Source: Chiloscyllium plagiosum
Taxonomy: Eukaryota
Direction: 5' to 3'
Assembly: GCF_004010195.1 (NCBI RefSeq)
Contig: NC_057719.1
Span: 33,317,520 to 33,381,519 of the forward strand
Length of the DNA stretch: 64,000 nt
Shown here: one piece after another, positions 1,760 to 63,950 of the stretch
Position numbering within the stretch: position 1 is the first letter of the stretch
Layout of the letters: each line of letters starts with the position of its first letter
Translations under genes and position numbers: made by a program
Notes under the pieces: generated by a model
What the model saw: the letters and a program-made list of their open reading frames with translations, nothing else
Database searches by the model: none
What the model was told of the DNA's origin: nothing

Positions 1760-1795
1760 ATTCCTGAAGAAGGGCCTGTGCCCGAAACGTCGAAT
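1760..1795 (+). ncRNA. Minimal type I hammerhead ribozyme motif (best copy)
   Basis: AUUC-CUGAAGA-A-GGGC(CUGU)GCCC-GAAA-CGUC-GAAU: helix I AUUC/GAAU, helix II GGGC/GCCC, palindromic ACGU helix III; predicted cut after C1791. Confidence 0.8.
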
Positions 1796-1891
1796 CTCCT
1801 GTTCCCTGGATGCTGCCTGACCTGCTGTGCTGTTCCAGCAATAAAGTTTCAACTTTGATCTCCAGCATCTGCAGACCTCACTTTCTCCTCC
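1760..1891 (+). mobile_element. Young PLE terminal-repeat insertion nested in an older copy
   Basis: 8-bp TSD ttggtaaa (1752-1759, 1892-1899); ends in the family 3' terminus ctcactttctcctc; CpGs retained. Confidence 0.85.
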
Positions 1892-4129
1892 TTGGTAAAG
1901 TGTGGCATTGGAAAAAGCACAGCAGGTCAGACAACATCTGAAGAGCAAGAGAGTCAATGTTTCAGTCATAGCCATGCAGTCCTGATGAAGAGTTATGCCT
2001 GGAATATTGATTCACTTGCTCCCTAGATGCTGCCTGGCCTGCTGCACTTTTTCCAGCACTACGCTACTATACCCACCTCCTACCAAGGCTCATATTCTAT
2101 CACTCTTACTATCGCCTGCAACAACTTTTCTCACTTGCTTTGATCACCATTAATCTGTGCATCCCTTCCCCTGTACAGACCTCCACATATAGCCCCTCCT
2201 CCTTCCCTGGCCCATACTAATCTCACATTCTGTGTACCCATCATAGCCTCCGCTACTCACTTATTCTGAATACCTTACCATTCCACTCGCAACAGCAGGA
2301 AAAACTCTGCTACTTACTTTCAGTTCAGTCAGTCCCTCCTTTTCAGTACAGGTGGATGCAACCCACAATAAATCAGGAAAGGTCCAGACAGAAAGAGGCG
2401 AACCAGACATTCAACTCCTCAGTCCTGGTGTGGAGAGATTCTAGGCCCTCTCAGGATAGAATTGGGAAAACTTCCACAGGGATGTCAATATACCCATGTC
2501 AAACCATCTGAGTAATCACATTCTTCATTCTACAACTCTCACATTAACTTCATTGTCAATGTCAGTCACTGCATACTGCAACTAACCACATTCTCTTTTC
2601 TCTTGCAAGTAACGCCAACATCTCCACCAGTTCCATGGTAAAATAGCCTGCTCTCCCAGACACCAACTACTCAAGCCCCGGGGAGCACCCAGCACACCCA
2701 GAAGTGCACACTCTGATGCGTCACTCGGAAGATTAGCTTTCGAATGGTAGGGAGCATAAACTCATGAATTTGTCAGCTCCACTGCTGGTCCAGGAGGAGA
2801 TACCTCAGGCTGGTCAGAACACAGAGGGCTGCTGGAGTGCAGGCACTGTTCAGTGCCACGCAAAAGAGGATCCTGTGGTGTCAGTCATCAGGGACTTTGT
2901 CCAAATGCACAGAAAAGCAGACATATATGTGGGACACTAAGGCCCTCACTGTCCAGAAGCTGCAGCAGTACAGAATGATGTGGCCATCTCTCTGCCTCTA
3001 TGGCCAGATTGGTGTCTGCCATGGAGAGCTAGGCCCAGATTCCTCAGGGGCTGCTGGAGAGGGGCGACAACTACAACTCATCGCCCACTCCCAGCCCATT
3101 GGTCCTCAGGACTGAAGTTATGGCAAACAGGGGCATGGGGAACCTGGTGTGCACTCCAGTTGTCCTTTCCTCGCTCAGGACAGGTCAGGAAAATCCACTG
3201 GTGGTCAGGCCTTTCAGCTCCATGCTGCCTGCCACCCTCCAACTCTTGGGGTTGAAGCCAAGGCGGGTTAACTTGCCTCTGGCTCGCAGCCCTTCAGTAT
3301 GTCTTGAAAGATTCCACACCATCTGCCCTGCTTGCCTGACCAAACCTTCTTGGTAACCAGGCTCCACTGTAGAGCAGGCTCCCTCTCCCCCAGCTAAGGA
3401 ACCAGGGCTGACACTAAGATACAATGGGAGTGAAAGGAAAAGGAAAACATACTGAGGGCTCATTAGTGGCACACATTACATTGAACTTCACAATGAAGTT
3501 CATTTGTATAAGGTCCATTGTCTTGCCAGTACATTTGTTTCCTTGAGTCTCCGTATAGCCAAGAATATATCAGTGCTAGCATTATACCTCATGTCATGTC
3601 CATACAGGATATCAATGGGTCAATGTCTGTGTTGAGAGTCTGCTGAGCATCTGGAAGCAAGAGGAACAAGTCTTTCTGACACCATTTCCCTTTATCCTAT
3701 GACATCTCTATTCTTGCCCTGGCTTCTGAATTCAAAAGAGTTTGTTTGAATGCGGTGGTCAGAGATATCTGGGGCAGAGAGGTGTGCAGCACACAGGGAA
3801 CATTAATATCCTCAGGCACTGGGGACTCTTCTGATGAATCAAATGAATTGTGGAAGATAATTCTCACCCAACATTGGAGTTACCTTTGTTTTGTTTAGTG
3901 TACTAGACAAGACTAACACAGACTCAATGGTAGGCAACCATGATTATAAAGTTATTCATACCTCCCTAAAAGGGAAGGATGCAGAAAGGACAATATAACA
4001 AGATGATCAGATGGTACATTATACTGCAGTTTCAACATTTTACTTGCTTGAAAGTAACAATTTGTGAAACTTTATTATTGCACAATAATGTGAATTGAAG
4101 TAGAATGGGAAAGCATGGTGCAATGTAGA

Positions 4130-7689: not shown

Positions 7690-8950
7690 TCCTTGCAAAT
7701 CTTTTCTGAACCCTTTCAAGTTTCACACCATCCTTCTGATAGGAAGGAGACTAAGATTGCAAGATTCCAAAAGTAGCCTAACCAATGTCCCGTACCAGAA
7801 CATGATCTTCCAACTCCTGTACTCAATGCTCTGATCAAAAAAGAAAAGCATACCAAACACCTTCTTCACTGTCCTCTATACCTGTAACTCCATTTTCAAG
7901 GAACTATGAATCTGCACTTCAAGGTCTTTTTGTTCAGCAACCCTCCCCAGGACCTTACCATTAAGAGTATAAGTTCTGCTCTGATTTGCTTTCCCAAAAT
8001 GCAGCACCTCGCATTTATCTAAATTAAATTCCATCTGCCACTCCTCAGACCATTGGCCCATCTGATCAAGATCCTGTAGGACTCTGAGGTAATCTCCTTC
8101 GTTGTCCACTACACCTCCAATTTTGGTGTCATCTGCAAACTTACTGACTATATCTCTTATGATTACATTCAATTCATTTATATAAATGACGAAACATAGT
8201 TTTGATCCTTGTGACACTCCACTGGTCACAGGCCTCCAGTCTGAAAAGCAACCCTGCTCCACCACCCTCTGTCTTCTACCTTTGAGCCAGTTATGTACCT
8301 AAATGGCTACTTCTCCCTGTATTCCATGAAGTCTAACCTTGCTAACTATCTCATGAGGAACCTTGTCAAACGCCTTACTGAGTCCATATAGATCATGTCC
8401 ACCTCTCTGCCCTCATCAATCCTCTTAGTTATTTCTGCAAAAATCTCAATCAAGTTCGTGAGACATGATTTCCCATGCACAAAGCCATGTTGACTATCCC
8501 TAATGAGTCCTTGCTTTTTCAAATACATGTAAATCCTATCCCTGAGAATTCCCTCCAATAACTTGTCCACCACCAATGTCAGGCTCACTGGTCTATAGTT
8601 CCTGGGCTTGTCCTTACCACCTTTCTTAAACAGTGGCACGACGTTAACCAACCTCCAGTCTTCTGGCCCCTCACCTGTGATTATTGATGATACAAATATC
8701 TCAGCAAGGGGCCCAGCAATCACTTCCCTAGCATCCCCCGAAGTTCTAGGGTACACCTGATCAGGTCCTGGGGATTTATCCACTATTATACTTTCAAGAC
8801 ATCCAGCATCCCCTCTTCTGTAATATGAACATATTTCAAGATGTCACCATCTATTTCTCCACATTCCAAATGTTCCATGTCCTTCTCCGCAGTAACCATT
8901 GATCTACTGTGGCTCCACACATAGGGTGCCTTGCTGATCCTTGAGGGGCC

Positions 8951-9069
8951 AAAGAGTGTGGTGCTGGAAAAGCACAGCTAGGCAGGCAGTATCCGAGGAG
9001 CAGCAGAGTCGATATTTTGAGCAGAAGGAATTTTGATGTCCAGCATCTGCAGTCCTCACTTTACCCTAC
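8951..9069 (+). mobile_element. Short fold-back PLE-derived insertion (family 1)
   Basis: 17-bp TSD ctgatc(c/t)ttgaggggcc at 8934-8950 and 9070-9086; family terminus cagcatctgcagtcctcacttt. Confidence 0.85.
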
Positions 9070-10754: not shown

Positions 10755-11488
10755 ACCTGCAAACATTTGCCTCCAATCAGCTTTTGAAAGTTCTTGCCGA
10801 ATACCATCAATATTAGCCTTCTTCCAATTTAGAACTTCAACTTTTAGATCTGGTCTATCCTTTTCCATCACTATTTTAAAACTAATGGCTGGCCCCAGAG
10901 TGCTCCCCCACTGACACCTCAGTCACCTGCCCTGCCTTATTTTCCAAGAGTCGGTCAAGTTTTGCACCTTCTCCAGTGGGTACACCCATATCCTGAATCA
11001 GAAAATATTCTTGTACACACTTGATAAATTCCTCTCCATCTGAACCTTTAACACTATGGCAGTACCAGTCTCTGTTTGGCAAGTTAAAATCCCCGACCAT
11101 ATCCATCCTATTATTCTTACAGTTAACTGAAATCACTTTAGAAATTTGCTTCACAATTTCCCGCTGACTATTAGGGGGTCTATAATAGGATCCCAATAAG
11201 GTGATGATTACTTTCTTATTTCTCAGTTCTACCCAAATATCCCGGAATATCCTCCATAAGTACAGCAGTAATAATATCCCTTATCAAACGTGCCACTCCC
11301 TCTCCTCTCTTGCTCCCCTTTCTATCCTGCCTACAGCATTTGTGTCCTGAAACATTAAGTTGCCAACAAATTCTGCCTTAGCAGGTTGTTTTTTCTTATC
11401 ATTACTGAAATTACCTTGTTTTAGCTTCTGCTTTTTTTTTGTCAGAAGTCACACAACACCAGGTTATAGTTCGATGGGTTTACTTTTA

Positions 11489-11525
11489 ATCAAAACTTTT
11501 GGAGCACAGCTCCTTCATCAGGTGA
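11489..11525 (-). ncRNA. Hammerhead motif, family 2 (G12 lost, likely CpG decay)
   Basis: UCAC-CUGAUGA-A-GGAGC(UGU)GCUCC-AAAA-G...; the partner arm at 13305-13341 ends AAAAGCUU-GUGA, giving helix I UCAC/GUGA. Confidence 0.55.
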
Positions 11526-12466
11526 AGTGAAGGGAAGCACACAGGCACAGAATTTATATGCAGAGAGATAATGGCAAGGTAATTCCAGGTAATTCAGTGT
11601 CGGAAGATAAACATAAATGGTGTGAGCGAAGTGTCGACGGGCTGAATAACAAGTCCTTGCAGGTAATCAAAAGAGTCAAACGGTATGAGTAAAGTGTCAA
11701 CGGCTGAATAGAAAGTGAAGGGATGACCAATTAATATTTCCAAAAGTGTCAAAAAAGGATAGTGCTGGAGACAAACCAAATGACTGGAGTAACATGATCA
11801 GTGTAAGAGTCACTTGACAAGGGTCTAATCGAAGTAACAAGTAATCCAAAAAACTGTACAAACTAATTTAGGTAGATGATAACAACTTACCAAGGTGATG
11901 GTATCAAAACTTAACAGTAAGGAAGATTGTACAAACACAGAACAGAATGATGGGGTTACATGTAGCACGACATAAACCCAAGATCATGGTTGAGGCCATT
12001 TTCATGGGTACCAAACTTGGTTATCAGTTTATGCTTGGCGATTCTGCATTGTTGTGTATCTTGAAGGCCACCTTGGAGGATGCTTACCTGAAGATTGGAG
12101 GCTGAATGCTCTTGACCACTGAAGTGTTCACTGACTGGGATGGAACACTCCTGCCCGGCGATTGTTGCAGTGTTCACTGTTGTTGTTAGTGTCTGCATGG
12201 TCTTGCTGATCTCCCAGGCCTCGGGGCCTCCTTTCCTACAGAATATAAGATAGGCAACAGTGGCCAAGTCATATGAGTATCTGCCATGTACTTGGTGGGT
12301 AGTGTTCCCAAGTGACATGATAGTATCCATGCCGATGATCTAGCATGTCTTGCAGAGGTTGCAGTGGCAGGGATGTGTGATGTTGTGGTCACTGTTCTCC
12401 TGAAGGCTGGATAGTTTGCTGCAAACCATGGTCTGTTTGATGTGAGGCAGCTGTTTGAAGGAGAGA

Positions 12467-12625: not shown

Positions 12626-14173
12626 AAGTGGAACTGTAGGGATGGCTTTGGTGAGATGTACGTTGTCATCGATGACATGTTGAAGGCTGTAAAGAACATA
12701 ACATAGTTTCTCTGCTCCAGGGAAATACTGAACAACAAAGGGTTCCCCATTGGTCAGGAACCGTGTCTGTCATCAGAGGAGAGTGTTGCTGTTTTTTGTT
12801 GTGGTATGTCAGAACTGGTGATCGATGAGGTGAGCATCATATCCTGTTCTTCTGAGGCCATCTTTCAGCATCTGTATGCGTCTGCTGCATTCCTCCTCAT
12901 CTGAGTAGATCCTGCTATGACACCATCACCTTGAAAAATTGTTATTATCTCGCTACCTCAATTAGTTTGTATAATTTTGGATTACTTGTTACTTCAGTTG
13001 GACCCTTGTCATGTGACTCTTATACCTATCATTTTATTCCAGTCATTTGGTTTTTCTATAGCGTCATCTTATTTTTGATTTTTTTTGTAAATATTAATCA
13101 GTCATCCTTTCATTTCCTATTCAGCTGTTAACACTTGGCTCACACTGTGTGACCCTTTTGATTACCTGCAAGGACTTGTTATTCAGCCCGTTGACACTTT
13201 GCTCACACCATTTATGTTTATCTTCTGACACTCTGAATTACCTGGAATTACCTTGCCATTATCTCTCTGCATATAAATTCTGTGCCTGTGTGCTTCCTTC
13301 CACTTCACCCAATGAAGGAACTACACTCCAAAAGCTTGTGATTTCAAATAAACCTGTTGGACTACAACGTGTGACTTCTGACTTTGTCCACCCCAGTCCA
13401 ATAGCACCATCTGCACATTTTTGTTGATATCTCCTGTCACCATACTAAGCTATTCAGTGTTTCTATTCACCTTGTGTTTTATTCATATTTGTGCCTGTTC
13501 TTTCCTCAGATTTCTTTGTGATCTGCCTGAATGACCCATCCTGAAAACACAACTATAAGGACCTAAGAAATAGGTCACTTGCATGACAGCAGTCAACATG
13601 GACTCCTCAAATAACCTTCCTTTCCTGTTTCATGGCTGCCTGATAATCTGGCTGAAATTTGAAACTTGTCAGATTGGGACCTGAGACATCAGCCATGTCT
13701 CACTAAACTAGTAATTCACAGAAGAATTCAGTGCATCAGATTCATCTCAAACCAAAAATGGTTCTCAACTTTAAAAGCTACTGGTAATTCTCTCAATATT
13801 AAAAATAAATTATCTTGATACAGTTTGACAATGGTCATTTCAACACATGGGATATCAGCCATCCTAACCTTTCTGAATTCATTCTTGAATTGTGAGCTCC
13901 CAAAATGCCATTAGGCAGGGAATTTCAGGATTTTGATCTAATGACACTGAAGGTACAGTCAAGTATCTAAGGATGGCTAGTGACTTGGAAAGGAATTGCG
14001 AGAGGCTGGAGTTCACATGCATCGCTAAGCTTGTATTTCTGGATGGTGGAACTCATGGGTTTGGGATGTGCTGGCTGTAGTTAGAATACAGTGGAGAATA
14101 CAAAAGGTTGAGGACTTGGATGCTTAAGTCAGTCAATGAGGTACCAATTAAATTTATTGTGTTACTTTCAATA

Positions 14174-14284: not shown

Positions 14285-17189
14285 GCGATTGTTGCAGTGT
14301 TCACTGTTGTTGTTAGTGTCTGCATGGTCTTGCTGATCTCCCAGGCCTCGGGGCCTCCTTTCCTACAGAATATAAGATAGGCAACAGTGGCCAAGTCATA
14401 TGAGTATCTGCCATGTACTTGGTGGGTAGTGTTCCCAAGTGACATGATAGTATCCATGCCGATGATCTAGCATGTCTTGCAGAGGTTGCAGTGGCAGGGA
14501 TGTGTGATGTTGTGGTCACTGTTCTCCTGAAGGCTGGATAGTTTGCTGCAAACCATGGTCTGTTTGATGTGAGGCAGCTGTTTGAAGGAGAGAAAACTCA
14601 GTCACATTAGGGAGATTTAAACAATCCTTGGATAAGCACATTGATGATGATGGGATAATGTTAGGGGTGGGGGGGAGCTTTGATTAGTTCACAGGTCAGC
14701 GCAACATTGAGGGCCGAAGGGCCTGTTTTGCACTGTATTGTTCTATGTTCTATGTTCTAAGTGGAGCTGTAGGGATGGCTTTGGTGAGATGTACGTTGTC
14801 ATCGATGACATGTTGAAGGCTGTAAAGAACATAACATAGTTTCTCTGCTCCAGGGAAATACTGAACAACAAAGGGTTCCCCATTGGTCAGGAACCGTGTC
14901 TGTCATCAGAGGAGAGTGTTGCTGTTTTTTGTTGTGGTATGTCAGAACTGGTGATCGATGAGTTGAGCATCATATCCTGTTCTTCTGAGGCCATCTTTCA
15001 GCATCTGTATGCATCTGCTGCATTCCTCCTCATCTGAGTAGATCCTGCTATGACACCATCACCTTGAAAAATTGTTATTGTCTCGCTATCTCAATTAGTT
15101 TGTACAATTTTGGATTACTTGTTACTTCAGTTAAACCCTTGTCATGTGATTCTTATACCTATCATTTTATTCCAGTCATTTGGTTTTTCTATAGCATCAT
15201 CTTATTTTTGATTTTTTTTGTAATATTAATCGGTCATCCTTTCATTTCCTATTCAGCTGTTAACACTTGACTCATACTGTGTGACCCTTTTGATTACCTG
15301 CAAGGACTTGTTATTCAGCCCATTGACACTTTGCTCACACCATTTATGTTTATCTTCTGACACTCTGAATTACCTGGAATTACCTTGCCATTATCTCTCT
15401 GCATATAAATTCTGTGCCTGTGTGCTTCCTTCCACTTCACCCAATGAAGGAACTACACTCCAAAAGCTTGTGATTTCAAATAAACCTGTTGGACTACAAC
15501 GTGTGACTTCTGACTTTGTCCACCCCAGTCCAATAGCACCATCTGCACATTTTTGTTGATATCTCCTGTCACCATACTAAGCTATTCAGTGTTTCTATTC
15601 ACCTTGTGTTTTATTCATATTTGTGCCTGTTCTTTCCTCAGATTTCTTTGTGATCTGCCTGAATGACCCATCCTGAAAACACAACTATAAGGACCTAAGA
15701 AATAGGTCACTTGCATGACAGCAGTCAACATGGACTCCTCAAATAACCTTCCTTTCCTGTTTCATGGCTGCCTGATAATCTGGCTGAAATTTGAAACTTG
15801 TCAGATTGGGACCTGAGACATCAGCCATGTCTCACTAAACTAGTAATTCACAGAAGAATTCAGTGCATCAGATTCATCTCAAACCAAAAATGGTTCTCAA
15901 CTTTAAAAGCTACTGGTAATTCTCTCAATATTAAAAATAAATTATCTTGATACAGTTTGACAATGGTCATTTCAACACATGGGATATCAGCCATCCTAAC
16001 CTTTCTGAATTCATTCTTGAATTGTGAGCTCCCAAAATGCCATTAGGCAGGGAATTTCAGGATTTTGATCTAATGACACTGAAGGTACAGTCAAATATCT
16101 AAGGATGGCTAGTGACTTGGAAAGGAATTGCGAGAGGCTGGAGTTCACATGCATCGCTAAGCTTGTATTTCTGGATGGTGGAACTCATGGGTTTGGGATG
16201 TGCTGGCTGTAGTTAGAATACAGTGGAGAATACAAAAGGTTGAGGACTTGGATGCTTAAGTCAGTCAATGAGGTACCAATTAAATTTATTGTGTTACTTT
16301 CAATAGTATGGACTTTCTTGAGTGTTGTTATATCTACGTCCATCCAGTTAAGTACAGAGTATTTCATCACACTCCAACTTGGGTTTTGGTGAAGATAGTG
16401 ATGATGATTTGGGGAGTTAGGAAGGAAACAAGTCACACAGGGTGATCTGCCTCAAACTTAGAATATTTATCTAGAATTTTTATCGGTGTAATTCTGGTCA
16501 ATAGTGCTCATCAGGGGTTTGTTGATGAGGGCCCTGATGATAGTCATGGTGTTGAATATCAAAGGGAAGTAGCTAGTATCTCTCTCTAATCTTGAAGATG
16601 ATGATTACCTCACATTTATATGTCATGAACATTACTTCCCATTTTGATCAGAGAATCTTAAACACAAAAGGTTGGTTTGCCATCTCTGTGTTAGCTGTAT
16701 AGACTCAAATCCCAGCTTTTTCACAGAACTCTGCAACATTGTCCTTTTCAAGAACATGCCCAAGTCCTTTTTATAAATTCCTCTGGAATCTGATTGCAAT
16801 GCTGTTTCAGGTACTGCTCCATATTTTAACATCTTGTGGAAGAAATGTCCCCTCATTTCCCCTCCATACTTCTATTATGTTTACACCCTTTGATTACTAA
16901 TCCATTTGCCAGATGAAATCGGTTCCATCTCTGTGCTTCATTAGAATCCCTCATAATTTTGAATCCATTAGTTAGTCTTCCCTAAACATTCTGGTTCTAA
17001 AGCTGAAAAATTCTAGCTATTCCTATTTCTGGACATAAACTCCGTCATTCTTGGTAAAATCGTAATTAACCTTGTCTGCGTCATGTCCCAGGCCTTGATG
17101 CCCTTTGGTACACAGAATTGTAAACAATATCCCAGTTGATGGTTAAGCACAGATTTGTAAATATTGAGCGTCATTTCCTTTGTTTTAAA

Positions 17190-18899: not shown

Positions 18900-19108
18900 G
18901 AGGAGAAAGTGAGGACTGCGGATGCTGGAGACCAGAGTTGAAAAGTGTGGTGCTGGAAAAACACAGCAGGCCAGGCAGCATCCGAGGAGCAGGAGAATCG
19001 ACATTTCAGGCATTAGCCCTGAACTCCTGAAGAAGGGCTTATGCCCGAAACGTCAATTCTCCTGCTCCTCGGATGTTGCTTGGCCTACTGTGTTTTTCCA
19101 GCACCACA
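18900..19108 (-). mobile_element. Short fold-back PLE-derived insertion (family 1)
   Basis: 15-bp perfect TSD ctttagcaatggaag (18885-18899, 19109-19123); about 80-bp inverted arms. Confidence 0.9.
19023..19058 (+). ncRNA. Minimal hammerhead motif
   Basis: CUGAAGA-A-GGGC(UUAU)GCCC-GAAA-CGUC; helix I degenerate. Confidence 0.7.
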
Positions 19109-19849
19109 CTTTAGCAATGGAAGTCTGCCGTTCTTATCTGATCTAGCCTATGTATTACTCTGGACTCACAACAAGGTGGTTGACTCCTAACTGCCTGCTG
19201 GGTAATTAAGGATGGATAATAAATGCTGATGTCGCCAATGGTGCCCACATCCCACAACAAATATTTTTAAAAAGTGAATTCTTGCAGTTGGCTGATCTGG
19301 TAGAACATTTTTTGTACAAACTCAGATATAGGTGGATTCCTCTCAAGGCCCAGGAATATATTTCTTGTAGGATGGGAAATTATTTCACTTTTCAGGTGAA
19401 ATAGAGCAATGAAATTTCAAGGGAGATTGAGACTTTTTGACGCAGGCCTAGCTGAGTTTGGAATTGTTTTTCTTGTTTTCTGACTGGGTATAGAAAGGAA
19501 AGTAAAAGAGAAGTCAAAATGGCCTTTGATGTATCTTATTAAAAAAAAACTGTGTTTTGTAGCAGTTAACTGTGGGGCCATTGGTATTATCTCAGACATA
19601 AAGAGTTTTGATAGCTCCCCCTTTCATTTAGAATTGGCTGGTGTTGACGTTTTGTCTGCCATTAATTTGTATTGGTTTGACTGGAATATGTATACAATAC
19701 CAACAGTATGGCATGCCAGGAGAACAATACAAGTTTTTGTCCCATTCTTACTACTGATCAGATGGAATTTAAAATAAAGGAGAAAGGTATTCTTATGACA
19801 GAAATAAGGAAAAAAAAAACACACACAAGTGAGAACCAAGATGAATGCA

Positions 19850-23255: not shown

Positions 23256-25027
23256 ACAAATAAGAGCACTAGAGAAATTCCACCAAGTCACCTGGATTCA
23301 ATGAGAGGACCATCAAACAAATGCTGGTGCCCGTCTTGAACTGCGCTCCATAAGCATTCAGGCAGAAATGCTAAATTAACGTAGGTGGACTGGACACTGT
23401 GTCCAGATGGCTGACAACCAAGATCCCCACCAGTTCGTGTTTTCTCAAATCTCAATTAACCAATATTCAGACAGAGGACAAAGAGAACATTTCAGAAACA
23501 TTCTGAAACTAACATTGAAACACAGCAGCATTCACATTGAGAGCTTACCAAGTGTTCAGAACAGCAGCAAGTTCTTCATCAAGCTGCATCACGCTCAGGA
23601 TCCCAGTGTCTTAATGATCAGACTGAACCATGGCAGACAAGGAAAGAAAAGGAGGCAAATCCATCTGTCTGAATCCTATTACCTCATGGGCCAACCTGCT
23701 CCACATTTGTATAGGTCATACGTTGTGAATCAGCCTATTCAAATCACATAAAGGCCATGGCAAAAACTTGCAATCCTGAATAAATGTCATACTCAAAGCA
23801 AGGACAGCCACTGATGACAAGATTAAGAAACCTATCTTTTTCCCAGGAGAATACAAAATAGTCCCATGGCATTACTTCAAAGAATACTGAGGTTCTTAAG
23901 TTTCCTGTATAATATTTATTATCAATCAACTTTATTTAAAAACAAAGATTGTTAAGACATTGCAGCTGTGGGACCTTGCTGTGTGAAATTAACTGCTGCA
24001 TCTCTTATTTACCAACAGTGATTACACTTCAAAAAATATTTGATGTGCTTTGGGATGCCCAAAGGTCATGAGAAACATTATATAAATGCAAGTCAAAGCC
24101 TTCATTGTTTTCACCAAATCAGTGCTCATTATAGGTCTTGTGGTATCATGGTGATGTCCTTATCTCTGGGCTAGAAGATCCATCTGCTCCAAAGGTTGAT
24201 TAAACATATCTATAAATATATGTCCTTTCTTTCTTAATATTTATACACTATACTTCATTGTTCCTTACATTAAATGTCATAAAGCTCTAATGAAATGTGC
24301 TACAACCAATGCATGGATTAAAATACAGCAATTCTTTTCATTTAAAACCCAGATGCTCCAAATAAACATTCAGTTCTCAAAATCAGAGGGTTTGTACCAA
24401 AATATGCACATTTACAGACCAGTATATTCTCCAGAGTAACAACTTTTAGATATGACTCTGGAATAGAAGACAGACTGTTAAGGCAGTCGCTCCTTAATTA
24501 GTTAAAATCTCCCTCTTTCAATAAAGGAGATCATGCTTCCAGGCAAGAGTACAATGACCTTTCACAATACCACTTCCAAATTCTAATAGCATTGTAGGTA
24601 TTTATGGCCCATCTATGCATTAATGGCTGTCTCTGTCAATTTGTGTGTGAAATATATAATCTATTAATAATTCATAACACATTTTTAAATCATTTATTAG
24701 TACAAGGAACGTAAACACACGCCAGAACAATTTACATAAGACTGCTAAACAGGACTTTGGATACAGATTTAATGTTATTTATAATGGTTGACAGATATAC
24801 CTGTTAAATTCTGAACCTGGGTTTTATTAGAATGATAGTGGTCTTATCCAGCAGTTGGATAGCAAGTAGATATACCCTATCAACAGTGCGAGGAGGCCTG
24901 ATGGAATTAAATGCCTTGCAAGCACTTATTTGGCAATTGTTAAGCTTTCCCTGTGAATTGGGCTGCCAGCAATGAAAGTCTGAAAAACTGCAGGTTAGGG
25001 CAGGGGGTTATCTTTTAGCTGCCATTC

Positions 25028-25223
25028 AAATGTGTTGCTGGAAAAGTGCAGCAGGTCAGGCAGCATCTAGGGAACAGGAGAATCGACGTTTCGGGCATTA
25101 GCCCTTCTTCAGGAAGAAGGCCCCTCTCCTGTTCCCTAGATGCTGCCTGACCTGCTGCGCTTTTCCAGCAACACATTTCCATCTCTGATCTCCAGCATCT
25201 GCAGACCTCACTTTCTCCTCAAA
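25028..25223 (+). mobile_element. Short fold-back PLE-derived insertion (family 1)
   Basis: 22-bp perfect TSD ggttatcttttagctgccattc (25006-25027, 25224-25245); inverted arms. Confidence 0.9.
25081..25115 (-). ncRNA. Minimal hammerhead motif
   Basis: Reverse complement UUC-CUGAAGA-A-GGGC(UAAU)GCCC-GAAA-CGUC-GAUU. Confidence 0.75.
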
Positions 25224-26758: not shown

Positions 26759-27490
26759 TCTCTGAGGCGCACCTAGAGGTTGCATGTGAAAAAGAACATT
26801 TTATTCACATTGGTCTGCAGATAGAGGCCAGCAACTGTAAGCTCACAGACATGGCTGGTGGATCCAAAGCAGATCAACAGTAGGGGTGTGGCCACATGAC
26901 CTTGGATAAAATATGGATTGAGGCAACCTTATGGGGGCAAGAAGGTTGAGTGACACACCATTTTCAATCTCAAACCTCTCACTAGACACCTACCGTTATC
27001 TCCAGCACAACACTCATCAGACCAAATCATTCTCACCTTCATCCCCTCCCCCACTCACCCATTGTACACTATGCTACTTTCTCCCCACCCCCACCCTCCT
27101 CAAGCTTATCTCTCCACGCTTCAGGCTCACTGCCTTTATTCCTGATGAAGGGCTTTTGCCCGAAACATCGATTTCGAAGCTCCTTGGATGCTGCCTGAAC
27201 TGCTGTGCTCTTCCAGCACCAATAATCCCAAATGCTTCTCTTTGTCAAGGCATCGACTTACATTTCCCATCCAAATCGTCAACACAGCTATCCACTTCCT
27301 TATTACTTTCCCCACAGTTCCTTTCACAAATGTACAAGCATGCTTTCAAACTGTTCTGTTTCTCACACTGATAACACTCTATTCTCTCTCCTTGTAGGAG
27401 AGGTCAGAAGCAGAACTCAAGGGAGAGGCAGAGAATCAAAAGTGCTCCTCCTAGTATAGCCACACTGAGCACTTTAAAATCAGATGCATC
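26759..27490 (+). pseudogene. Second Harbinger-type Myb/SANT-like gene relic
   Basis: FSEAHLEV / KNILFTLVCR*RPATVSSQTWL...QINSRGVAT*PW, then after a ccttgtag acceptor (27397) QKQNSRERQRIKSAPPSIATLS; frameshifted. Confidence 0.45.
27030..27225 (+). mobile_element. PLE terminal-repeat fragment with hammerhead motif at 27138-27173
   Basis: attc-ctgatga-a-gggc(tttt)gccc-gaaa-catc followed by the family-1 tail. Confidence 0.75.
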
Positions 27491-37286: not shown

Positions 37287-37834
37287 ACTTGTCAAGCCCT
37301 GGGCCCTGGAGGGGGTCTCCTGAGTTAATACAGGTATCTATACAAGGCTCCCGTTCCTTTGTTTGGGAGCATTGCGCTGAGCATAGCTGGTCTGAATTTT
37401 GAGGGTTTTTTTATACTTTTCTTTCTTTTTTTTGGTGTTGCTTTGCATAGTGTTAGGGTTTGTTTTGTATTACAGGGTAGGTTAGTAGTTGGTAGACAGT
37501 AGTTGTATTGTAATTTGTGGGGTTTTTTAGTTTTTATTATTCTGATACTTGTTATTGATTGTATTTTTCAATAATTTTATATGTTTGTAAAGTTCAAAAA
37601 AATTTGCAAATAAATATATTTACAAAAAAAAGTTATCCAATATCCGAACAATCAGTTACCAAACAATCAATTATCCAAACAAAATACTCACCGCCCATCT
37701 CATTCGGATAATCAAGGTTGTTCTGCACAAGCTTTTGGAGCACTAGCTACCTGACGATGGATCAGCACTCCAAAAGCTTGTACTTTCAAGTAAACCTGTT
37801 GGACTATAACCTGGTGTTGTGTGATTCTTGTCAA

Positions 37835-38045
37835 AACGTATGGCGCTAGAAAAGCACAGCAGGTCGGCAGCATCTGAGGAACATATGGGAGCCAATGTTT
37901 CGTGCATAAGTGTTTCATCAGGAATGAAGATGAAGAGCTTATGCTCGAAACGTTGACTTTCCTGCCCCTCGGATGCTGGCTGTGCTTTTCCAGCACCACA
38001 CATTTTTACTATGATCACCAGCATCTGCAGTCTTCACTGTCTCCT
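37835..38045 (+). mobile_element. Short fold-back PLE-derived element (family 1)
   Basis: Inverted arms around catcaggaat/gatgaagagcttatgctcgaaacgtt; helix II variant GAGC/GCUC. Confidence 0.75.
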
Positions 38046-38384: not shown

Positions 38385-38688
38385 ATCCTCCACCAGTGTT
38401 TGAGATGAGGCGCTCTTCTCCAACCGTCGTGTTGCTATGGTCTGGCAATGGAGGAGTCCAAGGACCTGCATGTCCTTGGTGGAGTGGGAGGGGGAGTTCA
38501 ACTCCCCCAAGTCCCTCCTCCCTACCTTTTATCTTAGCCTGCTGGACACACTTGCCTCATTCCTGAAAAAGGGCCTATGCCCGAAACGTCGATTCTCCTG
38601 TTCCTTGGATGCTGCCTGACCTGCTGCGCTTTTCCAGCAACACATTTTCAGCTCTGATCTCCAGCATCTGCAGTCCTCACTTTCTCCT
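38385..38688. mobile_element. PLE fragment: inverted endonuclease C-terminal piece plus terminal repeat
   Basis: 38400-38500 is the reverse complement of the PLE C-terminus seen near 29790-29860; hammerhead with G8A at 38559-38594; family terminus. Confidence 0.75.
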
Positions 38689-41418: not shown

Positions 41419-41471
41419 CTTTTGTCAGGAAATCTGATTGCTACGGTCAGTCAAAGGAATAAGTGACTGAG

Positions 41472-41661
41472 CTGAAAATGTGTTGCTGGAAAAGCGCAGC
41501 AGGTCAGGCAGCATCCAAGGAACAGGAGAATCGACGTTTCGGGCATAAGTGCCCGAAACGTCGATTCTCCTGTTCCTTGGATGCTGCCTGACCTGCTGCG
41601 CTTTTCCAGCAACACATTTTCAGCTCTGATCTCCAGCATCTGCAGTCCTCACTTTCTCCTC
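41472..41661 (+). mobile_element. Very young fold-back PLE-derived insertion (family 1)
   Basis: 15-bp TSD gaataagtgactgag (41457-41471, 41662-41676); perfect 77-bp palindrome 41469-41545 / 41550-41626. Confidence 0.93.
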
Positions 41662-41782: not shown

Positions 41783-44125
41783 TAGAATGATACAGTACTG
41801 AAGAGGCCCATTGGCCTATCGAGTCTGCATTGATAACAGCTGCTCAATCTACATGAGTCCCACTTTTCAGCACTTGGCCCATAGTATTGAACATTGTGAC
41901 ATTTCAATGCTCATTGAAGTACTTTGTAAAGGTTGTGAGGTTTCCCACTTCTACTACTCTACCAGGCAGTGCATTCTGGGTGAAAAAACATTTTCCTCAA
42001 ATCTCTTTTAAACCTCTAAGCCTTTCACATTAAAATTATGCCCCCTGTTATGGGCTGTTCAACTACGAGGATCAACAGCTCTTTATCTACCATGCCCATG
42101 CCTGTCATAATCTTGTACATCTCAGTCAGGTCCCCTCTCAGCCTTCCCTGCTTAAAAGGAAACAACCAAGCTTATTCAGTCTCTCTTCATAGCTAAACTG
42201 TTCCATCCTAAAGCAACATTTATCAGAGTTAAATTCCATCTTGCACTAATCTGTCCAACTGACCAATCCATCGGGATCCTCTTGTGATCTAAGACCTTCT
42301 TTCTTACTGTCAACTACCCAGCCTTGTGTCATCCGCAAACGTACATATCATTGCCCCCACCCCTACATTTTCTTTTATATTATTTACATTCATATCACAA
42401 ACAATAAAGGGCCCAGTATTGATCCCTGTGTTATGCCACATACATTGGCCTCCAGTCACACAAACAGCCTTCTCCCATCACCCTCTGACTCCTAGCACTA
42501 AGTCAGTTTTGGATCCAACTTGCGAAGTTATCCTGGCTCCAAAATGCACTTACCTTCTTTATCAGTCTCGCATGTGGGATCTTGTCAAAGACTTTTCTGA
42601 AATCCATATAAACTATATCAGCTGCACTACTCTCATCTACACACCTGATCACCTCCTTGAAAGATTCAAGCAAATTTCTTAAGCACAACCTCCCTCTGAA
42701 AAGTCATGCGGATTTTCCCTGATCAAACTTTTCTTCCTCAAATGGAGATGAATTCTCTCCTTCAGAATTTTCTGCAGTACATTCCCTCTCACTGGTGTAA
42801 GGCTCACTGGTCTGTCATTCCCTGGTTTATCTCTACTACCCTTCAAGAAACTTGGAATCGTATTTGCATCCTGCAGTCTTCTGGCACCTCCCCTGTGTCC
42901 AGTGAGGTATTAAAGATTTGTGTCACAGCCCCTGTAATTTCCTCCCTCATCTCCCAAGCCTAGGTTGCTCGTATGGACCTAGTGTTTGTCCTTTCTTAAG
43001 CTCACCAAAATCTCCAGTACCTCCTCTTTCCCGATGTCAAACTGCCCAAGAATCTGACTGTTCCTTTTCCTGATCTTTGTACCTACATCCTCTTTCTCCT
43101 GAGTGAAGTATTCATTTTACAATCTATCAATGCCTCCAGTTCCACCCACAAATTGTACTCTTGGTACCCAATGGGTCCTTCACTGGTCAACTTCTTCCCC
43201 TTAATATACAAACAGAATATCTAGAGATTCTTCCTAATCTTACCCACCAATGTTTTTTCAAATGCCCCATTTTTGCACAAGATTTCCCCTTGCACTTTCT
43301 GATGATTTGCTCCCTTTGTATCGGTTGAAAACCTCTCTTTTCCTTCTAATTGAATCATGAATATTCCTCGACATCAAGCATTGCTCCTACATTTCACTTT
43401 AAAGGAACATGTTGGGTCTGTACTTTCACCAGTTTCATTTTGAATGCCCTCCACTGTTTCTGCTGCAGATTTTCCCAGAAATAGCTGTTCCCAATTTAGT
43501 TTGGCCTGATAATAAACAAACAAACTGTAGATGCTGAAAATCAGAAACAAAAGCAGAAATTACTGGGAAAGCACAGCAGGTCTGGCAGCATCTGGGGAGG
43601 AAAATCAGAGTTAACATTTTGGGTCCAGTGAGCCCTCAGATTTCTCTCTACAGATGCTGCCCGACCCATTGAGTTTTTCCAACAATTTCTGTTTTTGTTT
43701 CTACTTTGGCCAGATCCTGCCTTATGTTATTAAAATCTTGATAGTGATAGTTGTGGTCATTATCATGAAAACACTCTCCCATTGCCATCTGGACTATCAA
43801 TCTGACTTTGTTCCCCAATATCAGGTCTTGCAATGCACCGTCCCTTGTGAAACTTTCTAAATGTTGATATGTAAAACTCTCCTGTCTCCTCGAAACCCTT
43901 TGCATCGACTAACCCAATCAGTGTTGGGGTGGTTAAGATCCACAAATATAATTACTTTATTGTTATACACAGCTCAGTGAATTTTCTACATATCTGCTCC
44001 TCTTTTGCCCACTGACTTAAGGCCTATAATACATTTCCAGCAGTGTGACCGCCACCTTTATATTGCAAAGCACCACACACAAAGCTTCATTTGAAGATGG
44101 TTTTCCAAGATGGTATCCCTCCTTT
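41783..44125 (-). mobile_element. Old, internally deleted CR1 LINE
   Basis: YMDFRKVFDKIPH, EVPEDCR, TRDGALQDLILGN motifs. Confidence 0.8.
43507..43703 (-). mobile_element. Fold-back PLE-derived element, third family
   Basis: Arms agaaacaaaagcagaaatt...gcagcatctg / cagatgctgc...aatttctgtttttgtttct; short repeat tttggcc on both flanks; decayed hammerhead at the centre. Confidence 0.65.
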
Positions 44126-54269: not shown

Positions 54270-55530
54270 TCCTTCCTTATCAAAACATCTTTTGAGCTTA
54301 TTCACATGACACACTCAGAGACTTCCTCCTGTCTGGAGTCCTTATCAAGTAGTTCACCTCCCTCAATTTCCTCTCAATTTGATAAGGTCCACTAAACCTT
54401 GCTTTTAAAAGTTCACCTGTTACAGGAAGTAACACCAAAACCTTCTCTCCAATTGCAAAACTGTGGATATGTGATTTCTTATCTGCTTTCTGTTTCATTG
54501 TATGCTGTGATACTTTTAAATGCTGTCTAGCCAACTCTCCAGCTCTATTTAATCATTCTCTAAAATTTGACACATATTCCAAATGGGTGGTCTCTGAATT
54601 CTGACTTATTAATTTCTCCTTAATCAATTTTAACGGTCCTCTTACTTCATGCCCAAAAATTAATTCAAATGGACTGAATTTGGTCGATTCATTCAGTGCA
54701 TCTCTGATCGCAAAAAGTACAAAGGGAGCTCCCTTATCCCAATCATTTGGATAATGCTGACCATAAGCTCTCAACATGGTCTTTAGTGTTTAATGCCATC
54801 TCTCTAGCACTCCCTGCGATTCTGGATGGGATGCAGTGGTTTTGAATTGCTTTATTCCCTAGTTATCCATAACCTCCTTCAATAGCTTGGATGTGAAGTT
54901 TAATCCTTGATCTGACTGGATTTCTATTGGTAGTCCATATCTAGTAAAAAAAATTAAATAATTCTTCTACTACCCTTTTAACTGCGATGTTGCGTAATGG
55001 GATTGCCTCTGGAAATCTAGTCGACACATCCATTATTGTTAATAAATACTTATTCTCACTTTTTGTTTGAGGTAGGGGACTTCCGCAATCAGGCGAAAGG
55101 GAGGACTGCAAATGCTGGAGATCAGAGTCTAGATTAGAGTGGTGCTGGAAAAGCACAATAGGTCAAGCAGTATCCGAGGAGCAGGAAAATCGATGTTTCG
55201 GGCATTCCTGATGAAGGGCTTTTGCCCGAAATGTCGATTTTCATACTCCTCGGATGCTGCCTGACCTGCTGTGCTTTTCCAGCACCACTCCAATCTAGAC
55301 TTACGCAATCAATCAAGACTCTTGTGAAAGGTTCCTCAAATGCTGAAATAGGTATTAAAGGTACAGGTTTTAATTCTGCCTGTGGCTTTCCAATTAGCTG
55401 ACATGTATAACACGTTTGGCAAGATTCAACTACATCCTTGTGTAGTCCAGGCCAGTAAAAATGTCTTTGTATTTTAGCCTGTGTTTTCCTCACCCCTAAA
55501 TGACCTCCAAGTGGTAGCTCATTTGTCACT
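54270..55530 (-). pseudogene. Gypsy integrase
   Basis: GGHLG...CQTCYTCQ zinc finger, LTIMDVSTRFPEAIPL, FSPFELIFG, ARFSGPY. Confidence 0.9.
55092..55297 (-). mobile_element. Short fold-back PLE-derived insertion in the integrase
   Basis: 14-bp TSD gactt(c/a)cgcaatca (55078-55091, 55298-55311); hammerhead on + at 55204-55239. Confidence 0.88.
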
Positions 55531-60020: not shown

Positions 60021-62499
60021 AATTAAATATTAAAAACTCGGACCCCTACAGAGCCAGCGACCCCTTCCTTTCACTTAAGTAATGGAATAGGCAACAAACG
60101 GGAGAGAATGATTTATGGTCAGTGTTTCATATAAAACCATATTGAGAAAAGAAGGTAGGCCTCATATCATTCCAAGTTTTATTATATTTTTAGCGTTGTC
60201 ATTAGACAGTAGCAAAAAAAATCAATTTCTTCAGTTATATACTTTAATAACTTTGCCCCTCAGTCTGATGTAAAAACCCATAAACTTATTTAACAGCCAT
60301 TTATTATCTTCTAAATCTATGTCTTACATTTACATCATCAATTTTCCTGACAGTCTGAAAGTGGTTTTAGATTATCACCGGAGATTATCCATAACTCTAT
60401 TTATTTAGTGCATATAATTTGCATAATGTCGAATTTTTGATTGCATTTTGAAAGCAGATCGATTGATATTTTGAAATAATTAACAGACCAAATGCACAAG
60501 TGAGATTTTGTGGGAAATTATTCCTTTCCAAATTTATTCATTTAGTCTGACATGGAAAAATTCCAAGAAAAATTTTGTTCTTTCTACAGAAACAAATACC
60601 TGCTTCAATCCTTCACCCACGTAATCTCAAGTGTTTAATGTGAAACAAAGATTACACAGTTAGTTTATAACCCCGTGTTGATTGAACTAAAATGTAAGTC
60701 ATGCTATCTATTGATATAAAATTGTTCCTTTTCTTGTATTGCAATCCTTACTTTAAGTAGTTTATGCAAATCATTTGGTTATGATGGAAACAGAAACATT
60801 AGATGTAGCCGAGCAGAAGGCATTATGTTAACCATATTTATCATGTGTACTGGTTGCACAATTGCAGCAATGACTAGCAATCACTGGACCGAAGAAAAAT
60901 CAGTCTTTGTCTATCGCAAACCTAAACTCTGCCTGGTCAATCCCGTGAGGAATTCCACAGTGTATCCGAGGGAAATGGATTAGGCAGTTTCACATTAAGC
61001 TTGAAAAGCTTTAACAAAACATTGTGCTGTTCTGAAGAGCCTTTTTGACAAGTCCAGCAACTTCTCCTTACAGAAGTGGCTGAAACAAAAGTCATCACCA
61101 CTTGGTCACATCTCCAATAGCTGGTTGATATTTTCAGGGTCCTTTTCAGTGACATCCCTAAAGCTTTTCTGTTATCTACCTGGGAATCTCCTGTTGTGAG
61201 TGACTTTACATAAAAATAACCAGATACATTCATTATGACCCTGTGCAGAATGTGCCAAGATGTTTTCAATAAAACAGTGGAAAATTATTGGTAATAATGA
61301 CCTGGATTACATCCCTGTTTGAGCTTCCAGTGTCAATTCTGATTTCCACTAGAAAACATGACGCCAAGATGTGGAATAAACCTAGCTACTTTTCACTTAT
61401 TCCTTCCACTATGTCAAATGAATCTTCCTGAAGATTAGTTGCATCAAGCTGCTAAAATTTTTATATTTGAGGCTTATTGGAATAACACTTTTTAACTTAC
61501 TGTTAAACATCCTTGGGCGCATAATATAATTTGGTTGGATAACAAAGCAAAGCCCAGAAGACACCCATTCTCCACCGAGCCCCTACCCCCCCATAGAGTT
61601 TTAGCTTCTACCTCTTGCCTCCAAGTCAGCTCACTAGCTTCTCATTAGTTTCATAACTTTCTCCAAAAGGTTACTTGTTGAATATTCAATATCCCACCTA
61701 ATTATTTTGACTGTTAATTACTTCCTCAAAAGATTCAGGATGATTAATGACATGCAACTTCTCGTTTATGGCTGCAGAAGAAATGAAATGAACAAATTAT
61801 GGTGCAGAATGTTTAATTCTTCCCACTGAGTAAAAATGGAGGAGATAGACAGTCAAAATGGAATGTCTTCCCTTCCTGATCCTTGCCTCTCTCTCTTTCA
61901 GGTTTTAACACTATGGGCTTTGATGGTTGATGATCTGGCAAACACACTCGGGAATTAGGGAACCAGGGTTGAGGCAGGCACCTCATGCCCAACTGCTAAG
62001 CAGAGTGTTATGTACCCTGGTAGGCTGAACAGGAAAGCCTGCAATAAGGCTCAAATAGTTGGTAGTTGAAAGGACAAAGATGTGACTGAAGAAAATTTCT
62101 CTTATGGAGTGAAGAAAAACAGAAATCTTCTTTTGGACTCAATGGGTAAACTCATGTCCTGCCCTTCTCCAGATGAAAAGAAACACCTTCTAACTCCACA
62201 AAACCCTTGTCCACCATCACAGGTCAGGGATGTGATGGCATATTCCACACTTGCCAGGATAATTGCAGCTCCAACAATGCTCAAAAAGCTTGAGCCATTC
62301 GGCTCAAAACTGTCCACTTGATTGGCGTCTCATCTCACACTTTCAACAGTCAATCCATCCCCCCCAACTCTCAGTGGCAGTGTGTACAATCTACAAGATG
62401 CACTGTAATGTCTCAGCAGAGCTCCTTAGACAACCTTTGAAACCTGTGACCTTGACCATTTAGATGGGCAAGTACAGCAGATACACCAGAGTATCACAT

Positions 62500-63950
62500 A
62501 TTATGCAAAAGGAGCAAATCGATAGAGGCCCTGGTGGAGGATAGAAATTGTGGGTGGATCTTAAGAAAACAATTAAGCAAGCAAAGAGGCGCATGAGAAA
62601 ACACTGACAGGTAAAATTAGGGAGAATCCGAAGTTATTCTAACAATGTAGTAAGGGGAAGAGAATAACCAGAAAAAGACTAGGAGCCATTACGGACCAAA
62701 GGGGCAAACTATGCATGGAAATGGAGGCTATTGGCAGGGTGACAAACAAATGCTTCACACCTGTCTTCATTCAGGGAAAGGAGGATGTAGATATAGATCT
62801 TGGGATGAGTGATTGTGAGGGTCTTGAGCAGATTGACATTTAAATGAGGACTTAGTTAGAGACAACAACACTGCAGATGTTGGAATCTGAGGTAAACAAA
62901 AGACTGGAAGAACACAGCAGCATCAGGAAGTGGGGAAATCAAAGTTTCGGGTATAACCCTTCTTCAGGATTCAAGGTGGGGGTAGAGGGGGGAACGAGGG
63001 GGGGGGCCAGGTTANNNNNNNNNGGGAAGGGGGGGGGGGGGGGAAGGTTATGGGTGGGGAGAGGGGCAAAGTGGTGAAGTAGAGATAGGTGAATACAGGT
63101 GGTGGGTACGATGTGGTTGGTCGATGGGAAAGAAGAATCCAGTTGGAAGCTAGAAGGAATGGTCAGTCGGAGGGATGGAAGGGAGGAGGCGAGAGATGGA
63201 TTGGAAGGTTATTTGAAATTGGAGAACCAATTGAAATTGAGGTTAATTTTGAAATAACGAGATCGAGAGCGGGTAACAGACTGGCATGGGATGTTCAGGT
63301 GGAGGGGACGTATTGAGTCCTCCGGGCTGCAGGATCTTCTGCCTTTCTAGCCCCGCCTCTTCCCTTCCATCCCACCCACTGACCCTCCCTTCCACCTACA
63401 ACTGGATTCATTCCTCCCATCGTCATACTCACCACCTATCATGACCTCACCACTCCGCCCCTTTCCCCATCCAAAACGCTCACCCCACTTTATCTGCAGC
63501 TCTCCCATCCCCACCCCCAGTCCTTAAGAAGGGTTATACCCAAACCTCTGACTTCTCCACCACCTGACATTGCTTGGCTTGCCGTGTTCTTCCAGCCTCC
63601 TCCTTATCTACCTTGGAAATGAGGAGGCATTTGACGTTGTGCCAAGCTTAAAAGTTGACAAATTACCAGGTCCAGATGAGTTGTATATTAAAAGAGTATG
63701 TTTGCTGTGGAAGAGGAGACTCTGACCCAAATTTTGAATTCCTCTCTGGCCAAAGGGAAGTGCCAGAGGACTGGAGGACAGCTAATGTGGTTTCACTTTT
63801 TGAGAAAGATGGTAAAACTAAACCAGGGAATTATAGACCAGTGAGTCCCACAACAGTGGGAGGGAACACATTAGACAATATTCTGTCAGAGAGAATTAAT
63901 CTCTACTTGGAGAAGTATAATTGATGAGGGATAATCAGCGTGGTTTTGAC
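62500..63950 (+). mobile_element. CR1 fragment interrupted by a PLE fold-back
   Basis: KIRENPKLF; EVPEDWRTANVVSLFEK...NYRPVS. Confidence 0.8.
62858..63612 (-). mobile_element. PLE fold-back element related to 28893-30265, containing a small N gap
   Basis: Inverted arms; hammerhead 62937-62971(-) AAUC-CUGAAGA-A-GGGU(UAU)ACCC-GAAA-CUUU-GAUU; decayed copy at 63520-63554. Confidence 0.75.

Follow-up and report, generated by a model that had tools for sequence, protein, structure and literature searches.

Introduction

The minimal hammerhead ribozymes (min-HHRs) of Penelope-like elements (PLEs), as set out in the available parts of the work of Cervera and de la Pena (2014; PMC4209133), have a type I fold with a short helix I, an extra base between positions 9 and 10.1, a G10.1-C11.1 pair and a palindromic 15.2-16.2 segment, and occur mostly as solo dispersed copies, with some opposite-strand pairs and several families per genome. 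All of these features recur in a 64,000-nucleotide stretch of the Chiloscyllium plagiosum genome (contig NC_057719.1, positions 33,317,520 to 33,381,519; hereafter the window), so the kind of ribozyme is already described; what is new is the insertion mode of the copies and their scale in this shark-like genome. The copies, which fall into at least five families (A-E among them), are real, PLE-derived and mostly dead, and the short ones look as if they begin at a transcription start of the parent element. Where copies begin and end, a feature overlooked by the first-pass annotation of the window (made from the sequence alone), is more informative than the motif itself. In the available parts of PMC4209133, the ends of solo copies are not mapped and sharks are not named; unlike the ribozymes described there, those analyzed here have a short helix II (4-5 bp in families A, B and C).

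The Anolis Poseidon element PAc (Frangieh et al. 2024, PMC11167929, seen in part) carries its hammerhead near the start of the open reading frame (ORF). In vitro, two internal reverse transcriptase (RT) start sites bound a 30-40 nt tail, both target strands are primed, and uncleaved RNA is the main substrate. The same layout is present here, and priming of both strands and the use of uncleaved RNA are proposed here from sequence. The tail of PAc lies inside the ORF, whereas in the elements analyzed here it ends at the ATG (family C) or ~35 nt before it (family A). Unlike PAc, families A and C have a CX4CxxC linker, of the type that PMC8557442, also seen in part, ties to the Neptune clade (CX2-5CxxC). 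The available parts of PMC11167929 describe neither genomic run-off copies bearing a cap-derived G nor a poly(A) site situated between the ribozyme and the tail.

Endonuclease-positive (EN+) PLE units (Arkhipova et al. 2013, PMC3846280; Craig et al. 2021, PMC8557442; both seen in part) share with the copies analyzed here the head-to-head arms, the tail on one arm, the target-site duplications, and putative TATA and Initiator (Inr) motifs in the pseudo-long terminal repeat (pLTR). In contrast to those units, the entire insertion here is often just two arms of 90-130 nt, and the cap mark speaks for capped sense RNA as template, whereas the accessible part of PMC3846280 favors antisense self-priming while leaving the matter undecided. 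Non-LTR retrozymes, according to the parts seen of PMC7229834 and bioRxiv 10.64898/2026.07.22.740005, are likewise non-coding, related to PLEs and equipped with a type I hammerhead, and include dispersed monomers, but they form head-to-tail tandems. The copies analyzed here are solo or head-to-head and begin upstream of the core, and they are not unit-length cleavage products.

Boundaries and start signals of the copies

Positions are counted from the first core base (0), which places the start of the cleavage product at +28. Copies were sampled in 60 arbitrary 10 kb stretches from contigs C1-C23 only (570,746 non-N bases), and eight family A copies censored by gaps or stretch edges were dropped. 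Most of the 105 family A 5' ends (63) fall at -10 to +12; six lie at -64 to -11, 20 beyond -64, and seven at +13 to +32, including two at +27 to +32. For family C, 16 of 27 ends lie at -14 to +18 and none at -85 to -15. The 3' ends form two groups, at ~+72-101 and ~+113-130, corresponding to the two tail sites.

Two other origins of the 5' ends were considered and rejected. Splice acceptors would have their AG candidates at -17 and -25 in family A, where a single one of the 105 ends was found (at -25). The ribozyme cleavage site fails as a source because few family A ends lie at +27 to +32 and starts at the cleavage product are rare: 167 family A copies start there with a purine before, versus 3,962 with G at the predicted start, the subfamily sets behind the two patterns being overlapping but unequal. 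Short head-to-tail repeats of family A body pieces starting at the cleavage-product position were seen at G000:C16:42817561-42817924 and G000:C19:5625199-5625262 and possibly represent repeated template jumps.

A promoter box precedes the predicted start in both families. TATAAA occurs at -37 to -40 in 20 of 24 family C references, ~30 nt before A(-8). In family A the box is weaker: 14 of the 15 references have TTTATC/CTTATC, located between -31 and -37. Family A also has an Initiator-like sequence (consensus YYANWYY) with its A at -4. Among copies with no template C at the position before the start, an extra G stands there in 897 of 1,207 cases in family C and 3,962 of 6,821 in family A, against 25.9% expected. 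In hand counts of the first 100 listed rows, the G:A ratio was 79:8 at the start versus 41:59 at an internal control in family C, and 60:25 versus 48:52 in family A (background, 41:59). By our own reading of the listed rows, the family C excess holds where the upstream DNA is unrelated, and in about six family C events the extra G ends both arms of a pair with 0-6 nt between them. The short copies thus look as though they begin ~30 nt behind a TATA or TATA-like box with an untemplated G, at a predicted capped transcription start.

The pairs have a regular composition. One tailed or long arm is combined with one shorter arm in 24 of the 28 head-to-head pairs of the sample, and a target-site duplication of 12-21 bp flanks 14 of the 28, versus 2 of 376 random controls. 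Of the nine pairs examined in the window, four are flanked by exact duplications of 15-22 bp. The window contains no head-to-tail hammerhead units, and the sampled copies are solo or head-to-head.

Layout of the pLTR and RNA reads

Downstream of the ribozyme, the family C tail runs into the ATG of the RT ORF in L153, L154 and L155, i.e., in 3 of 12 upstream stretches, the rest being truncated, inverted or gapped. The family A ORF begins ~35 nt after the tail, as seen in an uninterrupted ribozyme-tail-ORF run in L073 and in the tail-to-ORF continuations of L022, L027 and L033.

RNA was represented by one raw poly(A) single-cell run, of which ~2% was read; 2,871 reads mapped on L152:5600-6260. 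Family C reads have poly(A) ends on the sense strand at +56 (373 reads) and +60 (312 reads); an ATTAAA at +40 precedes these ends by 11-15 nt. An origin of these ends from genomic A-runs was rejected, as 0 of 92 family C bodies carry one there. Family C RNA is therefore polyadenylated between ribozyme and tail. Together with the cap-like G and a start 30 nt behind the promoter box, this site suggests that the ribozyme lies within the first 40 nt of the element mRNA, and that the inserted copies derive from uncleaved, sense, capped RNA. The signal at L152:6206-6226 is a working poly(A) signal within family C ends, which number roughly 200,000 genome-wide and may supply many host transcript 3' ends.

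Read depth continues across the family C ribozyme, and reads also cover sequence upstream of the TATA box. Since these reads come from many copies, they demonstrate uncleaved polyadenylated RNA, and neither a start site nor the absence of cleavage. No pile of read ends is listed at the family C cleavage site in this poly(A) single-cell library, and no circular-RNA joint is listed at cleavage sites, a library of this type being one that would miss circles. Family A reads represent both strands equally, and no poly(A) end occurs among the reads shown.

Ribozymes and element families

Each of the 13 places at which the first-pass annotation had put a motif holds a recognisable copy, to within a few bases. 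The count itself was too low, since a profile search delineated 29 pLTR-end segments in the window (18 of family A, 4 of B, 5 of C and 2 of E), many of them arranged as head-to-head pairs. The family A pattern has six window matches against a shuffle mean of 0.06, the family C pattern two against 0.00, and a strict structure descriptor finds four hits against 0-1 in each of 20 resamples. The CUGANGA and GAAA boxes that all copies had been said to share are both kept in only six of the 13 (cores at 1764, 19027, 25112, 27142, 55208 and 62967). The sole flawless copy among the 13, with intact core, both helices and the ACGU palindrome, is the one with its core at 1764 (1760-1795), for which the predicted cleavage base C1791 had been named correctly. 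The attribution of core defects to CpG-type changes also stood: G12, which sits in a CpG of the family consensus, is gone in six of the seven defective copies.

Consensuses were grouped by the sequence 3' of the ribozyme, leaving 55 family A and 14 family C copies unassigned. Both catalytic boxes, with U16.1-H17 in type I order, are present in all nine subfamily consensuses. Between families, the first pair of helix I is C-G (A, B and C), A-U (D) or U-A (E) and the second U-A, A-U or C-G; helix II reads GGGC/GCCC, GGGU/ACCC or GGAG/CUCC, with longer forms in D and E. The covariation of helices I and II reported earlier thus holds between consensuses, but the commonest subfamilies, A2 and A4, have a U.U mismatch in helix I. 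The G10.1-C11.1 pair is kept, helix II opening with G, and the closing C is often T in D1 and E through CpG decay; in family B, G12 has decayed in about half of the copies. As had been proposed, an extra base follows position 9 (A in families A, B, C and E; U in D) and helix III is a palindrome of the type requiring dimers (ACGU in A, B, D and E; AGCU in C). The suggestion of at least three families was borne out by the five found genome-wide.

Rfam covariance models gave 20 matches in the window at E up to 5, with hammerhead families absent among them. The folding energy of the monomer is not better than that of shuffles (z -0.86), and the z-scores of five stretches range from -0.94 to +0.91, none of them significant. 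When two ribozyme copies were cofolded, the minimum-energy dimers also paired helix II strands intermolecularly, and a clear catalytic dimer was absent. The evidence for the fold is therefore core conservation and covariation, and not stability. The window motifs are, by their sequence, real minimal type I hammerheads of PLE pLTRs, with cleavage, perhaps dimer- or protein-assisted, as a prediction.

The PLE origin put forward in the first-pass annotation is confirmed by ORF linkage as well as by these consensus features. In the window, a decayed endonuclease-like ORF is followed after 437 nt by a family C motif; of the 30 best genomic matches to this ORF, the window copy included, 20 have a sense family C core 273-968 nt behind them. 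The ribozymes of families A, B, D and E likewise follow endonuclease-like ORF ends. Pfam matches above cut-off are RVT_1 in the family C ORF of L151, followed by an endonuclease-like region, and GIY-YIG in a family A piece of L121. The family C endonuclease pieces have no Pfam match of their own and align to this GIY-YIG piece at E 1e-9; one RT-like family A piece has no Pfam match. No unbroken full ORF was recovered; for family A, the eight stretches tried all contain N gaps. Partial pLTR tandems are present in L151, L154, L155 and L170, with inverted arms as well in L151 and L170, and the 30-40 nt tail of EN+ PLEs is found here. The CX4CxxC linker is read before the endonuclease in translations of families A and C and fits the Neptune motif. 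The elements are endonuclease-positive PLEs with a Neptune-type linker in A and C.

Several further observations concern these families. Family D (L066, L069, L077, L130, L134 and L146) is not represented in the window; its helix II is longer, and its endonuclease end is unlike those of A and C; a TATA box lies 45-53 nt upstream in five of seven family D references. In two family A copies, the same short piece of the endonuclease occurs three times beside N gaps (L121:3687-4391 and L170:3040-3705), possibly an assembly artefact. The tail and body of families A, B and C pair into a long hairpin 3' of the ribozyme (1805-1875 in the window; L155:1380-1440), a candidate RT-binding structure whose whole-stretch z-scores are not significant.

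Copy number and decay

Two exact patterns have 119,765 matches in the 3.56 Gb genome (98,051 for family A and 21,714 for family C), with none for the reversed-pattern controls, and a looser pattern has 109,272 against 100 control matches. In the 60-stretch sample, 42 cores satisfy a relaxed descriptor, where five resamples yield 0-2; this extrapolates to ~260,000 descriptor-passing cores genome-wide (Poisson range 189,000-354,000). The 214 pLTR-end segments that the profile search delineates in this sample extrapolate to ~1.3 million, or ~4% of bases. The very large number of motifs expected by the first-pass annotation is thus real. A 2017 survey by Lunse et al. reportedly lists about 150,000 such variants across databases, with dimer cleavage, and may include sharks. 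In the available parts of PMC4209133, the min-HHR-richest vertebrates are coelacanth (~4,000) and Xenopus tropicalis (~9,000), far from the 119,765 exact matches here; tandem retrozymes number at most 14,255, in axolotl, in the part seen of bioRxiv 10.64898/2026.07.22.740005, whose supplements include one chondrichthyan genome. The core count here is 10-30x the per-genome figures of these papers, a rough comparison because descriptors differ between studies. The literature searched, subscription papers and the repeat databases Repbase and Dfam lying outside the search, contained no account of cap-marked PLE run-off insertions, of a PLE hammerhead load of such size in a shark, or of PLE hammerheads in cartilaginous fish.

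The wording "ribozyme load", taken as a load of working or selected host ribozymes, was not supported, as G12 decays like other CpG bases and many copies adjoin their own antisense arm. In family A, G12 is changed in 13 of 73 copies and other CpG bases in 41 of 219; in family C the figures are 7 of 15 and 3 of 15. Non-CpG core bases of family C are not less changed than other bases (7/149 versus 51/854). Those of family A are more conserved (18/721 versus 300/4,059), which counts against neutral decay; we put the lower change down to subfamily variation and to the selection of copies that align across the core, biases that were left in. The copies read as neutral and dead after insertion, their conservation and covariation coming from selection on active master elements, so that a host ribozyme load is not what the covariation reflects, but master lineages. 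Seen from the host, the copies resemble neutral debris, although family C ends do provide it with poly(A) sites.

Models of insertion

For the copying mode of PLEs and the purpose of their hammerhead, the roughly one million pLTR ends of this genome amount to a natural experiment. Given the anole PLE results (PMC11167929, in the part seen) together with the end positions, start signals and pLTR layout, the simplest account is 5' priming and run-off: the PLE protein probably often starts reverse transcription close to the 5' terminus of the capped mRNA that encodes it and reaches the end of this template within 90-130 nt, with twin priming giving the pairs. In families A and C, the hammerhead would lie at the extreme 5' end of the Pol II transcript of the element, in the order promoter box, start at -4 (A) or -8 (C), ribozyme, two RT start sites at ~+85-95 and ~+120-125, and ORF start. 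The protein would nick target DNA and prime at one of the two sites. On a capped, uncleaved mRNA, synthesis would run off at the cap and copy it as an extra G, leaving a mini-insertion, in this account a strong-stop-like cDNA of the 5' leader. Priming of both target strands, one per site, would yield a head-to-head pair with a tailed and a tail-less arm inside a target-site duplication, and the inserted copies would then be dead and decay neutrally. An uncleaved sense capped template would bear directly on the sense versus antisense question left open in the accessible part of PMC3846280.

Several observations weigh against this account. The 5' ends are spread over ~20 nt and do not fall at one base; family D has no 5'-end hotspot, 16 of its 18 copies extending more than 20 nt upstream, and the ends of families B and E (one and two references, respectively) are poorly mappable. 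Family A has no canonical TATA box. An inverted partner may also supply part of the G excess, above all in family A, many of whose rows end in letters belonging to that partner. Among 35 solo family A copies with a start at -14 to +20, just 6 show a duplication of at least 11 bp. No pile of read starts is listed at the predicted start in the poly(A) single-cell library, which is poorly suited to show one.

Ordinary 5' truncation of read-through PLE RNA, with RT starting at the 3' tail and stalling or being released at a folded hammerhead (dimeric or protein-bound), would fit three textbook PLE features given in the available part of PMC8557442: heavy 5' truncation, an inverted copy alongside, and a tail of 30-40 bp. 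The spread of ends across the 5' half of the ribozyme and the 20 family A copies extending beyond -64 agree with it as well. An RT moving 3' to 5' would, however, meet the 3' side of the structure (+19 to +32) first, where ends are scarce (just 7 of 105 in +13 to +32), and a pause accounts neither for an untemplated G at one position nor for the 30 nt TATA spacing, which makes truncation unlikely in our view. The huge copy number and near-fixed length could also suggest a separate non-autonomous element resembling a SINE or a retrozyme, its short copies being transcribed themselves, or circularised after self-cleavage, and amplified in trans; vertebrates do hold non-autonomous PLE-derived retrozymes (bioRxiv 10.64898/2026.07.22.740005, seen in part). 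We give this quite low probability: the promoter box upstream is missing from the short copies, ORF-linked long copies carry the same subfamily sequences, unit tandem arrays are absent from the window, and few family A copies begin at the cleavage product, as counted above over unequal subfamily sets.

A boundary set at the DNA level, by the GIY-YIG endonuclease cutting an intermediate at the pLTR or, for the palindromes, by self-priming on an antisense template, is rather improbable. The anole endonuclease prefers 5'-ATT-3' near its own pLTR (PMC11167929, seen in part), and ATT is found at the start of family A, but the start of family C is ACA/ACT. Antisense self-priming has been proposed for head-to-head PLE palindromes (PMC3846280, seen in part), but the extra G on both arms and the unequal tail lengths fit two sense-strand primings better than fold-back. 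Finally, it is very improbable that the copies are selected, working ribozymes that cut host transcripts. The number of descriptor-passing cores, the presence of both-strand copies in RNA reads and the lower non-CpG change in the family A core speak for such a load; against it are the CpG-like decay of G12 in families A and C, polyadenylated RNA that spans the family C ribozyme with no listed end pile, and the in vitro results in the part of PMC4209133 available, where such monomers showed no cleavage and dimers only weak cleavage.

The account by 5' priming and run-off has a parallel in retroviruses and LTR elements, where the U3-R-U5 order places promoter, capped start and poly(A) site before the priming site, and the first (minus-strand strong-stop) cDNA reaches the cap. 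The order proposed here is the same in outline. A tentative extension, which we consider possible but doubtful, is that the pLTR might work like U3-R-U5, the first cDNA being a strong-stop product that is inserted directly or jumps to the 3' repeat through a hammerhead-bearing R. Because the poly(A) mRNA of family C ends ~60 nt after the core, before the RT start sites, its only priming sites would be those at its 5' end. If true, this would explain at once why copies have a tail, partial tandems and inverted arms. The hammerhead would then be a switch: by stripping a transcript of its cap and of half of R, it would decide whether that transcript serves as template or goes to translation or decay. 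Unlike in the retroviral case, synthesis here would be target-primed by a GIY-YIG endonuclease, with no tRNA primer or integrase, and the short product itself would be inserted. Strand transfer is not favored by the long family C copies, in which the junction G excess is absent (1/11), and read-through RNA could equally template long copies.

Annotation of the window

The best minimal hammerhead of the window belongs to family A1 (1760..1795, + strand). Its helix I is formed by 1760-1763/1792-1795, its core occupies 1764-1770, followed by the extra A (1771), helix II (1772-1783), GAAA (1784-1787) and the ACGU palindrome, with predicted cleavage after C1791. It is part of a family A mini-insertion reaching from the predicted transcription start to the tail end (1760..1889, +). 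Next to it lies an old head-to-head family A pair with decayed cores (1897..2063). A family A end fragment found by profile search begins within helix II (8948..9027, -). Further head-to-head family A pairs are at 18902..19120 (tail arm -, tail-less arm +; 15 bp target-site duplication), 25020..25220 (22 bp duplication), 31039..31180 (both arms beginning 3' of the ribozyme; 15 bp duplication) and 55090..55296 (+ arm beginning at helix I), together with an old pair at 37829..38045 and a young one at 41465..41661 whose joint lies inside helix II (15 bp duplication). Two family A ends retain upstream pLTR sequence: that of a longer copy at 27137..27234 (+), with a pyrimidine-rich upstream part, both boxes intact and a mutated palindrome, and a family A2 end at 38558..38688 (+), which keeps ~60 nt of this sequence, has a tail and carries a mutated G8.

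Family C is represented by a pLTR end with hammerhead of an older subfamily (11441..11525, -), which has lost G12 and has TATAAA 37 nt upstream of the core. Upstream of it is the decayed C-terminal endonuclease-like ORF of a family C PLE (11956..12339, -), which ends 437 nt before the hammerhead; this piece has no Pfam match itself, and its family aligns to the GIY-YIG-matching family A piece. An inverted, tail-bearing arm with a decayed core (13306..13427, +) is the partner of the 11441-12339 copy. A second copy of this arm (15438..15559, +) lies in a near-identical 2.0 kb block across an N gap (98.9% over 2,019 nt): block 12158-14170 is repeated as 14285-16302, flanking the gap at 14174-14284, and is a probable assembly duplication. 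Other family C segments are a body fragment that lacks the ribozyme (31740..31778, -) and an end that has lost G12 and is broken by the next insertion (37747..37829, +). The family B pLTR ends at 28840..28981 (-) and 30142..30295 (+) have lost G12, the one at 62832..62971 (-) has both boxes intact, and the one at 63517..63648 (+) has a decayed core. Family E, which was absent from the list of the first-pass annotation, forms a head-to-head pair at 43514..43709.

Other repeats surround these copies. At 18445-18530, (TG)n/(CA)n-rich arms form a near-perfect hairpin with weak miRNA-family matches below gathering scores. The region 48947-52666 looks by eye like a retrovirus-like remnant, with a gag-like ORF at 48947-49348 that has no Pfam match and weak Rfam gag/pol read-through matches, below gathering score, at 50591-50657. 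Gypsy-like fragments occupy 53665-57276 (-), where the Integrase_H2C2 match at 55137-55529 hosts the inserted family A pair 55090-55296. Translations point to a decayed L1-like element at 32014-36715 (+), in which a coiled-coil ORF1-like piece is followed by endonuclease- and RT-like pieces. A LINE RT fragment with an RVT_1 match lies at 21403-22377, and similar pieces at 7876-8843 and 40668-41156 look CR1-like by motif.

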